A DNA stretch of 64,000 nt from Candidatus Spyradenecus sp. (GTDB taxonomy: Bacteria > Verrucomicrobiota > Verrucomicrobiia > Opitutales > UBA953). Within the stretch, counting starts at the first letter, position 1. Each line of letters starts with the position of its first letter. The stretch is taken from the NCBI GenBank assembly GCA_045535075.1, contig JAZSKX010000018.1, positions 224,001 to 288,000 on the forward strand. The letters run 5' to 3'. This document shows positions 61 through 63,885 of this stretch, piece after piece. The notes under the pieces are model-generated. The model had not been told where the DNA came from, made no database searches, and saw nothing but the letters and a program-made list of their open reading frames with translations. The position numbers were made by a program, and so were the translations under genes.

Positions 61-1133
61 GCGACTTAAAACGTTTTCTCGCCGGAACGCATTTGCACCC
101 GCGCCCGTCTCTCCCGATTTTAATCCGTTCCCGTGTCCGCCTGGCGCGCAATCTTTCCGATTCCGTCTTTCCGAATCGACTCTCTCCGCAACAACGCGAC
201 GACACGAAGAATCGGATTCTCGACGTTTTGAAAAAACTTCCGGAGTTTTCCGGCGCAAGCTGTTTTGAAATGCACGATCTTACGCTCGCCGAAGCGGAAA
301 TCCTCGTCGAACGCCACCTCATTTCCAAAGAACTTGTCGAGCGGGAAGGCGCCGCCGTAATCATTGACTCCGCGCGGAAAATCTCCGTCATGATTAACGA
401 GGAAGATCATTTCCGTATTCAGGTTTTGGATACGGAAGTCGACTTGGCAAAACTTGCGGGAACGGCACAAAAACTCGCCGCGACAATCGCCCGGGAATTA
501 CCTTTCGCGAGTTCCGCCCGCTACGGCTACCTGACGGCATGCCCGACCAATCTCGGCACGGGAATGCGCGTTTCCGTCATGGTTCACCTTCCGGGTTTAG
601 TTATGGACGGCCAAATGGAAAAAGTTGTCCGCTCGCTCAACATGTGCGGACTGACCGTGCGCGGATCGCTCGGCGAAGGCTCGGACGCCGCAGGAAGTAT
701 TTTCCAAATTTCCAATCAACGCACGCTCGGGCAACCCGCCGAGAAAATCGTCTGCAACCTCCAAGATTGGCTCAAAAGCCTCATCGAACAGGAACGCAAT
801 GCCCGCCGCCGCGTTGTTCGCCGCGCCAAAAATGTATTTTTTGATCAAATCGGGCGCCTTTACGGCGAAGCGCGTTTCGGAGTTTTGATTTCCGAAAGTG
901 AAGCGCTGACCGGGCTCTCGCTCATGCGGCTTGCCTGCGACCTCGGGATTTTCCCCGAGTACACGCGGGTGCGATTTGACGAATTGCTCACGGAAAGCCA
1001 AGACGCGCACATTCGTTTTCGCAATAAAATCGCGGGAACGGCAAAACCGAACGAGCTTGCGGATCGTTGCCGCGCGACACTTTTTCGCGAAACCTTTTCA
1101 ACGCTCCCGCCGCCGGATTTTTCGCGACTCTAA
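57..1133 (+). CDS. mcsB: Protein-arginine kinase (ATP:guanido phosphotransferase)
   Basis: Motifs SRVRLARN, INEEDHFRIQ, GYLTACPTNLGTGMR, FQISNQRTLG. Confidence 0.92.
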   Translation: MSDLKRFLAGTHLHPRPSLPILIRSRVRLARNLSDSVFPNRLSPQQRDDTKNRILDVLKKLPEFSGASCFEMHDLTLAEAEILVERHLISKELVEREGAAVIIDSARKISVMINEEDHFRIQVLDTEVDLAKLAGTAQKLAATIARELPFASSARYGYLTACPTNLGTGMRVSVMVHLPGLVMDGQMEKVVRSLNMCGLTVRGSLGEGSDAAGSIFQISNQRTLGQPAEKIVCNLQDWLKSLIEQERNARRRVVRRAKNVFFDQIGRLYGEARFGVLISESEALTGLSLMRLACDLGIFPEYTRVRFDELLTESQDAHIRFRNKIAGTAKPNELADRCRATLFRETFSTLPPPDFSRL

Positions 1134-1159
1134 ACCTCAGCTAAGTAGAAGCAGAAAAC

Positions 1160-1201
1160 AAAAAGGCGTTCCCGCATGTACTTCACGGGAACGCCTTTTT
1201 T
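1160..1201. terminator. Bidirectional intrinsic terminator built from two inverted copies of the GCGGGAACG-type motif
   Basis: AAAAAGGCGTTCCCG-catgtacttca-CGGGAACGCCTTTTT between convergent mcsB and fhs. Confidence 0.85.
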
Positions 1202-1216
1202 GTAATGTTTTTCCGA

Positions 1217-61420: not shown

Positions 61421-62023
61421 TTATTTCTTCTTGGCTCCTTCCGCAGCGTCACCTTCCGCTTCTGCCTGAGCTTCAGGAGCCACGCAAGAGGCAACAACGG
61501 AGTTTTGGTTCGACGGGAACGTCACACCCGGAATCGCCGGAAGCGCGTCAATGTGAATCGTATTGCCAGCATGGAGGTTCGTAACATCAACCTCGATGCA
61601 TTCGGGGAGATCTTTCGGAAGACAACGAACGATAATTTCATGCGCGACTTCGAGAATTCCGTTTTCGGTGAGAACACCGACGCAGTCGCCTTTGACGCGA
61701 ACCGGAATCGTCGCCGTCATTTGGACATTCGGGTCGACTTCGAGGATGTCCACGTGAACGATTTTTTGGGAAACCGCATTGCGTTGGAAGTCCTTAATGA
61801 CCGAGAGAATCGTGTTTGCACCGTCAATGGTGATTTCAACGAGCGCAGCACTTGTGCCTTTTGCGCGCATCATCATGCGGAACTCAACCGCGTCGAGAGT
61901 GACGGGTTTCGATTCGTTTTTACCGTAAATCACGCCCGGGATAGCTCCCGCAGCGCGGAGGCGACGTGCCGGTCCACGACCGATACCGTCGCGCGTCTTA
62001 ACATTCAGTTTGTATTGTTTCAT
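61421..62023 (-). CDS. rplY: 50S ribosomal protein L25/Ctc
   Basis: ARRLRAAGAIPGVIYG, HVD, CLPKDLPE; start set at MKQYK. Confidence 0.95.
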   Translation of the reverse strand: MKQYKLNVKTRDGIGRGPARRLRAAGAIPGVIYGKNESKPVTLDAVEFRMMMRAKGTSAALVEITIDGANTILSVIKDFQRNAVSQKIVHVDILEVDPNVQMTATIPVRVKGDCVGVLTENGILEVAHEIIVRCLPKDLPECIEVDVTNLHAGNTIHIDALPAIPGVTFPSNQNSVVASCVAPEAQAEAEGDAAEGAKKK

Positions 62024-62244
62024 GTTTTGATGTGTCTTCGTGTAGTCACGGTCCCGCACGATTGCGGCCGCGCCTCGACCGAAGACAAGTCGAGAATGAA
62101 CTGTCCAATCTACGGGAACGCCCTTAGAAGTGCAACTACAAAAAAGCGACCGTATTTCATTCCGAAAGTACGATCGCCTGATAATCCAAAATCTGAAAAT
62201 TTTGAGAAATCCGGAAAGCGGATCTTGGTGCCCGATAGTTCGCG

Positions 62245-63807
62245 TTAGGCTTTTTTCTGAGTTTTTCCGTCGTCGGGACGCGGGAACAAAATGGCTTTTT
62301 CTCCGAAAGTTTTTCCGACAAGCACATCGCTCCAAATAAGATTTCCTTCAAATTTTTCGGCAGCTTCAATACCGAAAAGGTTTTGAATTTTGGCAGCAAT
62401 GCCCGGCATAATCGGCGTTACGGCGACGGCAACCAAGCGCAAGCCTTCCGCCATCGTCGCGAGAGAGGTTTCCATTTTTGCGCGGTCAGCGGGCTCTTCG
62501 GATTTGGCAAGTTTCCACGGGGCGCGCTCGTTGGCGTAGCGATTTAACTCGCGGACAAAATTCCAAAGCACGTCAAGAGCCGTATGGAATTGGAAATCCG
62601 CTGCGAGCGCGTGATACTGGCGCTCGGTTTTTTCCCAAAGCTCTCGAAGATTCTGTTCGAGCGCTTCGCAAACCGTCGCCGCCGGGAGCACGTGATTGCA
62701 ATAATTTCCCGTCATGTTCAGCACGCGATTGACCATGTTTCCGAGGTCGTTCCCGAGGTCGCTTTTGTAGCGGGAAAGATAAAGCGCTTCGGAATATTCG
62801 CTGTCCTGCCCGACATTCATTTCTCGCATGACAAAATAGCGGAAGGCGTCGGCGCCGAGTTCCCGCATCAGCTCGATTGCCGTTTTTTCTTTCGGGGCGT
62901 CGGCATCCGCATCGGTTTTTGTCTTGGAAACTTTTCTTCCTGCGGAAAGCCACCAGCCGTGGGCGACGATTTTTTTCGGCAATTCCAAGCCGAGCGCGTG
63001 AAGCATAATCGGCCAGTAAACGGCGTGCGGCGGCACGAGAATATCTTTTCCGATAACGTGAATATCCGCCGGCCAACAGGCTTTTTCGAGTGAGGCGGAA
63101 TAGTAATTTGTCAGCGCATCAAACCAAACGTAGGTAACAAAATCTTTGTCGAACGGCAATTCGATGCCCCAGGAAAGGCGTTCTTTCGGGCGGGAAATAC
63201 AGAGATCGGAAATCGGTTCCTTGAGGAATTCGACGACATTTTTTTGGCGGAAAGCCGGAAAGATGAAATCCGGATTTTCTTCGAGATAATTGCGTAGCCA
63301 GTCCTGATATTTCGCGAGGCGGAAAAAGTAATTCGATTCCGTGATTTCGATGACTTCCCCGAAAATTTCCGGCCATTTGCCGTCCGGCGTTTTATCTTTT
63401 TCGAGGACGAACTGCTCTTGGCGAATGCTGTAAAAACCTTTGTAGTCCGCCTTGTAAATTTCTCCGGCGTCGTAAAGTTTTTGAAGGATTTCCTGGACGA
63501 CTTTGATGTGGCGCGGCTGAGTCGTGCGGATGTAATCGTCATTGGAAATTGAAAGTTCTTTGCAAATGCCTTGGAAAAGCTCAGCGACTTGGTCACAGCA
63601 TTCCTGCGGAGCAATTCCGAGTTTCTGGGCATTTTGCTGAACTTTCTGCCCGTGTTCGTCCAATCCCGTAAGGTAGTGAACCGCCTCTCCGTTCATGCGG
63701 TGAAAACGCGCAATCGTGTCGGCGAGCACTTTTTCGTAAGCGTGTCCGAGGTGCGGCGCACCGTTAGCATAGTCAATAGCAGTCGTTAGATAAAAAGGTT
63801 TTGTCAT
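62245..63807 (-). CDS. metG: Methionine--tRNA ligase (short form)
   Basis: YLTTAIDYANGAPHLGH, YVWFDAL, IGKDI, variant KVSKT. Confidence 0.96.
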   Translation of the reverse strand: MTKPFYLTTAIDYANGAPHLGHAYEKVLADTIARFHRMNGEAVHYLTGLDEHGQKVQQNAQKLGIAPQECCDQVAELFQGICKELSISNDDYIRTTQPRHIKVVQEILQKLYDAGEIYKADYKGFYSIRQEQFVLEKDKTPDGKWPEIFGEVIEITESNYFFRLAKYQDWLRNYLEENPDFIFPAFRQKNVVEFLKEPISDLCISRPKERLSWGIELPFDKDFVTYVWFDALTNYYSASLEKACWPADIHVIGKDILVPPHAVYWPIMLHALGLELPKKIVAHGWWLSAGRKVSKTKTDADADAPKEKTAIELMRELGADAFRYFVMREMNVGQDSEYSEALYLSRYKSDLGNDLGNMVNRVLNMTGNYCNHVLPAATVCEALEQNLRELWEKTERQYHALAADFQFHTALDVLWNFVRELNRYANERAPWKLAKSEEPADRAKMETSLATMAEGLRLVAVAVTPIMPGIAAKIQNLFGIEAAEKFEGNLIWSDVLVGKTFGEKAILFPRPDDGKTQKKA

Positions 63808-63885
63808 AAAAATTTTACAGTAAATGAATTCGGGAAAGATAAAACGCAACTCGCGTTCCCGCGAGGCTATTTATTCGGGAGAAAT

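Follow-up and report, generated by a model that had tools for sequence, protein, structure and literature searches.

Features of the window

The window, by which the whole stretch of 64,000 bases analysed here is meant, encodes RpoC, RpoB, EF-Tu, pantothenate kinase, a GreA-domain protein, valyl-tRNA synthetase (ValRS), ribosomal protein L9 and an FtsK with a gamma domain, with 53,836 of its bases in called genes. Scattered across it is a short word with the 8-mer core CGGGAACG, which is asymmetric, i.e., it differs from its reverse complement. Opitutales, Verrucomicrobia and Candidatus Spyradosoma are the titles of the nearest named records, in keeping with the assignment to a probable Verrucomicrobiota lineage in an earlier note on this DNA; the genus is known from metagenome-assembled genomes alone. 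The features discussed below are compiled in Table 1.

Table 1. Position and context of the word, its inverted pairs and the motif-poor or exchanged segments in the window
Feature	Position	Strand	Remarks
Dispersed CGGGAACG field	126..63862	both	135 8-mers (66 plus, 69 minus), among them 81 GCGGGAACG and 33 ACGGGAACG
Inverted pair GTTCCCG-loop-CGGGAAC, A-run before, T-run after	1168..1192		Between two convergent genes
Longest stretch of the genome without the 7-mer core	5382..10755		5373 bases, GC 42.8% vs 52%
Gene for a 1609-aa DEAD + UvrD helicase fusion	5513-10342	minus	Inside the core-free stretch 5382..10755
Motif-poor stretch	18500..28500		11 cores per 10 kb vs mean 33.8; rpoC, rpoB, EF-Tu and short ORFs
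Inverted pair, terminator-like hairpin (14 pairs)	40966..40986		Downstream of the pantothenate kinase gene
Inverted pair followed by TTTTT	49051..49076	+	Downstream of gene 48209-49018
ValRS segment	53371..57945		94-98% identical to three species otherwise only 65-82% identical
Inverted pair, terminator-like (14 pairs)	53429..53452	+	Just past the GreA-domain gene 51210-53405; among the top three stems of 36-56 kb
Inverted pair, A-run and T-run (17 pairs)	55095..55120		At the 3' end of the ValRS gene; resembles a terminator whichever way it is read
Inverted pair, A-run and T-run	59343..59364		Immediately downstream of the minus-strand gene for ribosomal protein L9

Identity and abundance of the word

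The earlier note had reported about 80 exact copies of the 9-mer GCGGGAACG (roughly 35 plus, 46 minus), about 33 of ACGGGAACG and an enrichment of roughly 100-fold. A recount yielded 81 copies on both strands (35 plus, 46 minus) and 33 copies, respectively, with the first site at 126 and the last one ending at 63862, as had been given. In dinucleotide-preserving shuffles of the window (n=100) the mean was 1.67 copies of GCGGGAACG (maximum 5) and none of the 100 reached 81; for ACGGGAACG the mean was 1.13 and the maximum 6. The enrichment of GCGGGAACG is ~48-fold over the dinucleotide shuffle in the window and ~175-fold over base composition in 80 kb sampled from the genome, so that the earlier figure is a fair one. 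The 7-mer CGGGAAC occurs 166 times in the window. Sites are spaced nearly at random (mean gap 295, median 208).

In the genome (1.95 Mb) CGGGAACG was counted 5159 times vs ~69 expected, which corresponds to about one copy per 380-400 bases or 2.6 per kb. It is the top 8-mer and GCGGGAACG the top 9-mer in the genome-wide k-mer ranking, the latter with 3244 copies (1581 forward, 1663 reverse) against 34 for its reversed reading, used as a control in the same genome. Each of the 24 one-off variants of CGGGAACG is 6 to ~200 times rarer than the word itself. The sequence logo reads y-[C/T]-[G>A]-CGGGAACG-[c], with flanks weaker than the core and c-G-CGGGAACG-c as the usual context. Information is confined to positions -3 to +1 around the word, with no conserved flank beyond; on the 3' side a faint preference for T was seen, and AT-rich flanking segments are absent.

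A DNA-level signal

The word lies mostly inside genes, as had been claimed: 59 of the 81 copies of GCGGGAACG and 99 of the 135 copies of CGGGAACG in the window, and 4152 of the 5159 copies of CGGGAACG in the genome (1007 outside), are within called genes. The genic copies fall in all six reading frames (sense phases 368/1433/694, antisense 254/270/1133). Two codon-aware nulls were computed with 20 shuffles each. In the sense direction 2499 copies were observed vs 290 +/- 16 after shuffling synonymous codons and 84 +/- 8 after shuffling codon order; in the antisense direction the numbers were 1659, 172 and 76. The enrichment proposed in the earlier note therefore survives a codon-aware null, 9-10-fold over the synonymous shuffle and 20-60-fold over the codon-order shuffle, and is a property of the DNA that does not follow from the usage of codons or peptides.

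The copies do not form a repeat family, because nearly every one has a context of its own (5143 distinct 32-nt contexts among 5158 sites), the logo has no distant flanks and differences between species arise by substitution. The ratio of forward to reverse copies is 1293:1121 in 20-kb windows of positive GC skew and 948:1206 in those of negative skew. This is a weak bias (~55:45; correlation of orientation with GC skew r = 0.58, 86 windows), attributable to the G-richness of the word itself together with a 60:40 sense bias, and bears out the earlier remark that the motif is not strand-polarised.

Inverted pairs

Pairs of the form GTTCCCG-N4-25-CGGGAAC number 204 in the genome, their stems averaging 10.4; 159 of them lie outside called genes and 122 of the 204 are accompanied by a T-run, an A-run or both. 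Of 1377 gene 3' ends, 183 have an inverted pair no more than 120 nt away, vs 47 of 1372 gene 5' ends. Such pairs account for 6% of the CGGGAACG sites. In the segment from 36 to 56 kb of the window the three longest-stemmed terminator-like hairpins are all motif pairs, and the hairpin between the two convergent genes near the start of the window looks like a bidirectional terminator. Persistence of the terminator pairs in motif-poor genomes of the genus was considered and rejected: there they are reduced in proportion to the word.

Motif-poor, acquired and exchanged DNA

The poorest 10-kb windows of the genome hold 7-8 cores vs a genome mean of 33.8 and correspond to two Mu-like elements, the first of them a prophage (Gam, transposase, transposition protein, terminase, portal); low-GC helicase genes are also among the poorest regions. 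A low-GC methyltransferase-plus-helicase island (C9, ~57-68 kb) is motif-poor. The word is scarce in recently acquired DNA such as prophage and foreign genes, and the core-free stretch around the helicase fusion gene is probably acquired DNA as well. The motif-poor stretch with rpoC, rpoB and EF-Tu consists of strongly constrained genes; its short ORFs at 23.9-26.7 kb we take to be ribosomal-protein genes.

The ValRS segment, with its high identity to three otherwise more distant species, looks like an inter-species recombination import, for which transduction or conjugation could equally have been the route. A quick tree of ValRS was rejected as a species tree, the gene having been exchanged between species and the wrong ORF having entered four of its rows; for species relationships, backbone DNA (40 kb), the pilus operons and ComEC were used instead.

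Distribution within the genus and turnover of sites

The word is limited to a single genus of Opitutales from animal guts. Each of its 18 genomes is enriched (340-5581 copies of GCGGGAACG), with the highest density, ~3.3 9-mers per kb, in one species, whereas 102 genomes of four sister genera and 16 of other families contain at most 196 copies, which is about the control level. Genus members share the same word at sampled loci of 52 to 65% GC, and the logos of nine samples from other members gave an identical consensus. Fourteen of the genomes are motif-rich and four are motif-poor (340-760 copies), and the load of sister species differs 4- to 16-fold; most copies were secondarily lost in these four species.

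The earlier note had suggested looking for dialects in related genomes. None were found in the genus: k-mer tables of the four motif-poor genomes (58-98 kb each) revealed no replacement word, only the same word at lower density, in line with the nine other samples. Samples of 40-80 kb from six sister-genus genomes contained no other hyper-abundant word, nothing exceeding ~23-fold; the sole hint of another one in the sister genera was CGTACCCG, 8-fold enriched in one genome.

Differences between species at the sites are point substitutions, and sites opposed by a gap are few (1-5 per comparison at seven close-relative loci, 2-9 in a second analysis). Sites of the source genome are retained to 63-80% in four motif-rich relatives vs 18-36% identity for any 8-mer. 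Point mutation thus both creates and erodes copies, which persist better than the sequence next to them.

Competence and pilus genes

The genome encodes ComEC, DprA, ComM/YifB, PilM, a secretin, PilC, a prepilin peptidase, two PilB-like and one PilT-like pilus ATPases and seven pilin-like proteins. The earlier note, which proposed natural transformation, had named ComEC, ComEA, DprA, ComM, type IV pilus genes and ComP-like pilins as the ones to look for; the type IV pilus genes, ComEC, DprA and ComM are indeed present, whereas ComEA and a ComP-like pilin were not found. In a profile search of the genome for a dedicated ComEA the sole HHH_3 match over threshold was the 787-aa Tex, which was rejected as ComEA, and the next-best was an integrase-family protein; the TIGR00426 profile reached at most 45 bits vs a cut-off of 53.1. 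In a sequence search with the seven pilin-like proteins no solved chain named ComP matched at E <= 1, and the matches obtained cover only the N-terminal pilin helix. As ComEC was found in 41 of 41 relatives, motif-free ones included, the gene inventory does not discriminate between genomes with and without the word.

Loss of competence genes was considered as the cause of the low density in the four motif-poor species and was rejected. Comparisons of DNA and by tblastn showed the pilin operon, the PilM-secretin operon, PilB/T/C, ComEC, the 141-aa pilin and DprA to be full-length, the only stops falling in over-extended 5' parts of two query ORFs, and the identity matrix of ComEC revealed no acceleration in the poor lineage vs the source genome. 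No visible loss of competence genes thus accounts for the loss of the word.

Comparison with known systems

The pattern most resembles the self-DNA uptake tags of the relatives of Neisseria and Haemophilus, from which alone such tags are known to date. The DNA uptake sequence (DUS) of the Neisseriaceae, read by ComP, is likewise a short, non-palindromic, clade-restricted word found on both strands, in genes and in several frames, with inverted pairs at terminators, scarcity in prophages and islands, and a type IV pilus, ComEC, DprA and ComM alongside. It differs in phylum, word and core length (10-12 bases vs 8 here), and neither dialects nor, by sequence, a ComP homologue were found here. DUS occur about once per kb; against this density CGGGAACG is 2-4 times denser. 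The uptake signal sequence (USS) of the Pasteurellaceae shares with it a similar core length (9 bases in USS), abundance in coding DNA, terminator pairs and accumulation by point mutation, and shapes peptide content, to which corresponds here a synonymous-shuffle null 3.4 times the codon-order null; it differs by its AT-rich flanking segments, which are absent around CGGGAACG. A recent preprint describes terminator and reading-frame biases for both DUS and USS and treats DNA uptake sequences as a trait of two families of proteobacteria (bioRxiv 10.1101/2025.10.24.684340). The minor pilin ComN has been proposed as USS receptor, as a prediction only (bioRxiv 10.1101/2025.06.16.659825). The earlier note knew of no such report, and our literature search turned up none either, whether on a word of this kind in Verrucomicrobiota or on CGGGAACG as a genomic signal. 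The candidate word TCGTTAGGC of soil Chthoniobacterales belongs to another order and another habitat and is a different word.

Interpretation

That CGGGAACG is an uptake signal of the DUS/USS kind which arose independently is the reading we favour, at slightly better than even chances, by analogy with these systems; both the connection with uptake and the kind of receptor are what we infer here. None of the refuting outcomes in the earlier note that can be checked by computation was observed. Abundance, use of all frames, the weak polarity, the distinct contexts, upkeep of sites, terminator-like pairs, depletion in foreign DNA, restriction to the genus, the machinery present and the exchanged ValRS segment speak for this reading. 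Against it count the failure to find ComEA or a ComP-like pilin, the occurrence of ComEC in all relatives, the intact-looking genes of the motif-poor species, the lack of dialects and the near-random spacing of sites. This reading competes with the view that the word is the site of some other lineage-specific DNA-level system without a role in DNA uptake, for example a mark by which a nuclease of defence or repair tells self from non-self, a place where short-patch repair or gene conversion is biased, or the site of a nucleoid protein, kept up by selection or biased repair. Abundance, occurrence in all frames, upkeep of sites, depletion in foreign DNA and restriction to the genus are equally expected from such a system, which fits somewhat better with the retention of all pilus and competence genes examined in the motif-poor species and with the failure to find a ComEA or ComP-like protein. 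No candidate reader protein was identified here, however, and the combination of terminator co-option with a full retractile pilus, ComEC, DprA and ComM matches the one precedent known, that of DUS and USS; we know of no such system that yields a non-palindromic 8-mer at one per 380 bases. On balance we regard this alternative as rather unlikely, though to be taken seriously.

We consider it improbable that a resident DNA methyltransferase targets the word, which would then be retained for a function linked to methylation, as HIP1 (GCGATCGC) is in cyanobacteria. Both are hyper-abundant, clade-conserved octamers inside genes, and the genome does contain the methyltransferase-plus-helicase island; HIP1, however, is described as a palindrome and a methylase target (PMC13756078), whereas CGGGAACG is no palindrome, and the single methyltransferase seen sits in that low-GC, motif-poor and hence probably recent island. 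A polar signal guiding RecBCD/AddAB or FtsK could be suspected from the over-representation of an 8-mer read on DNA, the FtsK gene with a gamma domain in the window and the weak correlation of orientation with GC skew. Chi and KOPS are several-fold rarer and far more skewed, being strongly co-oriented with replication; with a bias of only ~55:45 this explanation is close to refuted and deserves very little credence. Still less can be given to decay of a REP- or MITE-like mobile hairpin, or spread from terminator stems, to which the 204 hairpin-forming, mostly intergenic pairs might point. Such elements are intergenic units of 20-40 bases with conserved flanks that spread by transposition, whereas CGGGAACG is mostly genic and occurs in six frames, its flanks are unconserved and its contexts almost all distinct, its copies differ by substitutions and not insertions, and only 6% of them lie in pairs. 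The perfect word is also much commoner than any of its one-off variants, contrary to what decay would produce, and for the bulk of the copies this origin is already refuted.

If CGGGAACG is an uptake signal, double-stranded DNA carrying the word would be bound at the cell surface by a receptor, probably one of the minor subunits of the retractile type IV pilus. Retraction driven by PilT would draw the DNA through the secretin, ComEC would pass one strand into the cell, and DprA, RecA and ComM would recombine it into the chromosome. Fragments bearing the word would be taken up and recombined more often, such that new copies arising by point mutation would spread and old ones be kept (molecular drive), and the word would therefore accumulate wherever protein coding tolerates it; inverted pairs would have been co-opted as terminator stems. 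A more detailed version, to which we would give somewhat less than even odds, holds that the system evolved independently in Verrucomicrobiota with CGGGAACG as a new word and a receptor unrelated to ComP, and that its specificity was switched off twice with the pilus and competence genes intact.

Significance

CGGGAACG can serve in practice to distinguish core from acquired DNA and to bin the contigs of the genus. The 4- to 16-fold differences in load, with machinery that is apparently intact, constitute a natural experiment and open a comparative route to how uptake sequences are maintained, i.e., whether by drive or selection, or by which receptor. If the reading as an independent uptake signal is true, comparison of the 14 rich with the 4 poor species could identify the receptor gene directly, and the word would be a ready tag for genetic tools once the genus has been grown. 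It would then also be the first genomic indication of natural transformability in these gut Verrucomicrobiota, and self-biased transformation would be a recurrent solution rather than a curiosity.

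Abundance, form and orientation of the word

The genome containing the window (G000; 1.95 Mb, 18 contigs, 52% GC; the window lies on contig C5) has CGGGAACG as its most frequent 8-mer, with 5159 copies counted on both strands versus approximately 69 expected from base composition, and GCGGGAACG as its most frequent 9-mer, with 3244 copies; the latter read backwards, as a control, occurs 34 times. The manual counts of the earlier note proved exact: the window holds 81 copies of GCGGGAACG (35 plus, 46 minus) and 33 of ACGGGAACG, compared with means of 1.67 and 1.13 in dinucleotide-preserving shuffles, none of which (0 of 100) came near the observed values. 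In a logo aligned on the core, C-GGGAAC-G is nearly invariant; the flanks show weaker preferences, for C or T at -2, for G over A at -1 and for C at +1, and carry no signal farther out. All 24 one-off variants of CGGGAACG are 6 to approximately 200 times rarer in the genome than the perfect word, and those altered at positions 1, 2 and 5 are at background level.

In 20-kb windows of positive GC skew, forward and reverse copies number 1293 and 1121, versus 948 and 1206 in windows of negative skew. This orientation bias of approximately 55:45 arises because the word is G-rich and 60:40 biased towards the sense strand, and it sets the word apart from Chi and KOPS. Gaps between cores are distributed near-exponentially (mean 295, median 208). 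Two giant minus-strand genes, which may encode Ala-Gly-Thr-rich repeat proteins, lie in one-sided 20-kb windows (9 forward versus 66 reverse on C5, 11 versus 55 on C8), the favored orientation being their sense strand.

Coding-level tests

A simple model of codon usage called 1378 genes, which cover 83% of the genome. CGGGAACG is found in every one of the six frames (sense phases 368/1433/694, antisense 254/270/1133), is most frequently read in frame as GCG-GGA-ACG, and has 1007 copies outside called genes, a figure that includes missed genes because the calls are crude. Two coding nulls were computed with 20 shuffles each. Against 2499 sense and 1659 antisense copies observed in genes, shuffling synonymous codons within each gene left 290 ± 16 and 172 ± 10, and shuffling codon order within each gene 84 ± 8 and 76 ± 8, respectively. 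The enrichment therefore survives the codon-aware test that had been proposed for it, and the difference between the nulls suggests an influence of the word on peptide content as well. Many long ORFs of the window run antisense to real genes (e.g., 1205-2746 versus 1217-2848, and 55989-57923 versus 55143-57863), so that ORF length alone misleads gene calling in this genome.

Inverted pairs at gene ends

Neighboring inverted copies are strongly asymmetric in arrangement, with 204 pairs of the form GTTCCCG-N4-25-CGGGAAC genome-wide versus 62 in the opposite arrangement. The former have a mean stem of 10.4, lie outside called genes in 159 cases, and are followed by a T-run and/or preceded by an A-run in 122, compared with 9 of the opposite pairs. 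Of 1377 gene 3' ends, 183 have such a pair no more than 120 bases away; for gene 5' ends the count is only 47 of 1372. The six pairs listed in the table include the three longest-stemmed terminator-like hairpins at 36-56 kb of the window. Only 6% of all word sites are in inverted pairs.

Positions of features in the window and elsewhere in G000
Feature	Location	Positions	Strand	Remarks
Longest core-free stretch of the genome	window	5382-10755		42.8% GC (genome 52%)
DEAD/Helicase_C and UvrD-type helicase fusion, 1609 aa	window	5513-10342	minus	inside core-free stretch
Valyl-tRNA synthetase segment	window	53371-57945		
Inverted pairs at gene ends	window	1168, 40966, 49051, 53429, 55095, 59343		
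Operon with four pilin-like proteins	C1	259100-262397		
Giant gene, ~4791 aa	C5	125844-140217	minus	
Giant gene, ~4270 aa	C8	185332-198142	minus	
Mu-like transposable prophage	C16	~185,000-218,000		L206, L207; Gam, transposase, transposition protein, protease, terminase, portal
Second Mu-like transposition module	C8	~22,500-32,500		L208; motif-poor
Low-GC (44.8%) motif-poor island	C9	~57,500-67,500		L209; 1181-aa helicase-like protein, 537-aa DNA methyltransferase

Regions poor in the word

The helicase fusion gene was probably acquired and is perhaps defense-related. In a scan by 10-kb windows, the mean is 33.8 cores and the lowest counts are 7-8. Nowhere in the genome is the motif rarer than in the two Mu-like elements; the island on C9, possibly a restriction-modification or defense module, and the rpoBC/EF-Tu cluster of the window (11 cores in the 10-kb scan) are also poor. 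Acquired DNA and the most constrained genes thus contain few copies of the word.

Distribution among relatives

The closest named records, with valyl-tRNA synthetases at least 92% identical to that of the window, bear the names Opitutales bacterium, Verrucomicrobia bacterium or Candidatus Spyradosoma sp., except for two with unrelated taxon labels; goat rectum and water-buffalo colon are mentioned in two of the titles. Word density is 2.4-4.8 per kb in six of the seven closest loci (locus GC 52 to 65%), 0.63 per kb in the seventh and at most 0.46 per kb in 73 other Verrucomicrobiota loci compared. The 9-mer occurs 340-5581 times in each of the genus's 18 genomes, at most 176 times in 102 genomes of four sister genera and at most 196 times in 16 genomes from other families of the order, the last two counts being about those of the backwards control. 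The consensus did not vary among nine samples taken from members of the genus, and no other comparable word was found in the samples of sister genera. Searches of the literature outside subscription journals found neither a description of this word as a signal in genomes nor one of uptake sequences from Verrucomicrobiota.

In the sample of a sister-genus genome (G019, L141-L144), the most abundant 8-mer is CGTACCCG, which differs by one base from the word's reverse complement; its enrichment is only 8-fold (31 copies in 80 kb) and may reflect either chance or a weak signal of related kind. CTTTAATCT and overlapping 10-mers (28-38 copies in 63 kb of the sample of another genome, G013, L093-L097; more than 150-fold over expectation) look like a local tandem or interspersed repeat unrelated to the word.

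Turnover, loss and gene flow

In BLAST alignments of G000 with four motif-rich relatives (77-82% identity), 63-80% of G000 sites carry the same word in the relative, whereas only 18-36% of 8-mers of any kind are identical. Sites that differ are mostly 1-4 substitutions off and rarely face a gap; together with the excess retention, this indicates that copies are made and lost in place and preferentially kept.

Four species of the genus are motif-poor, three with approximately 740 copies and one with 340; the other 14 genomes are motif-rich. The first three are the nearest relatives of G000 by 40 kb of window backbone DNA, the pilus operons and ComEC; they are syntenic with it at 79-88% identity, two more species coming next and the rest at 65-82%. 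This trio keeps G000 sites at 17-21% (background 20%). A five-way alignment of 12.3 kb contains 12 sites present in G000 and an outgroup and absent from all three, versus only one present in the trio and outgroups and missing in G000, which points to secondary loss of the word by the trio. The fourth species is not close to the trio in backbone comparisons, with a ComEC only 38-39% identical to theirs, and its loss is therefore treated as a second, independent one within the genus. All four motif-poor genomes retain full-length ComEC, DprA, PilB/T/C and small pilin genes as well as full-length pilin and PilM-secretin operons, and neither faster ComEC evolution nor a replacement word was found in them.

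Three species that share 65-82% identity with G000 elsewhere match the valyl-tRNA synthetase segment of the window at 98%, 96% and 94%; the sister trio is only 88-90% identical here. The segment thus looks like a core gene imported from another species on 2.8-4.6 kb of DNA, which is compatible with transformation, without proving it.

Competence and pilus genes

Among the genes that the earlier note had proposed to search for, those for ComEC (570 aa, with Competence as the sole domain recognized), DprA, ComM/YifB and type IV pili were found in G000, and those for ComEA and a ComP-like pilin were not. The pilus genes encode PilM, a 984-aa secretin with TPR repeats, two PilB-like ATPases, one PilT-like ATPase, PilC and a prepilin peptidase. 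Only one HHH_3 domain passed the threshold; it is part of a Tex protein and was rejected as ComEA. Seven proteins have a prepilin N-terminal motif, four being encoded in a single operon, and none of the seven matched ComP by sequence. ComEC is present in all 41 relatives, and the gene inventory therefore permits an uptake reading and does not discriminate. Every ComEC copy compared (L136, L173-L176, L210-L223) is full-length, but identity between most species of the genus is only 30-38%, where valyl-tRNA synthetase is 86-100% identical; for a competence channel, such divergence is unusually fast.

Interpretation

Several classes of genomic word fail their signature tests here. A polar motif of the Chi/KOPS kind is unlike the word in its weak orientation, and a palindromic methylation word does not fit either. 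With 5143 distinct 32-base contexts among 5158 sites, the word is not a repeat family, and the mobile-repeat reading fails accordingly. That some DNA-level system other than uptake reads the same word is a possibility to which we give the lesser weight; it is kept alive mainly because ComEA and ComP were both missing in the searches of G000 and because the motif-poor species keep intact machinery. The anatomy of the word in G000 corresponds point by point to that of the DUS of Neisseriaceae and the USS of Pasteurellaceae, and by this analogy we lean, with some caution, towards regarding it as a DUS-like uptake signal.
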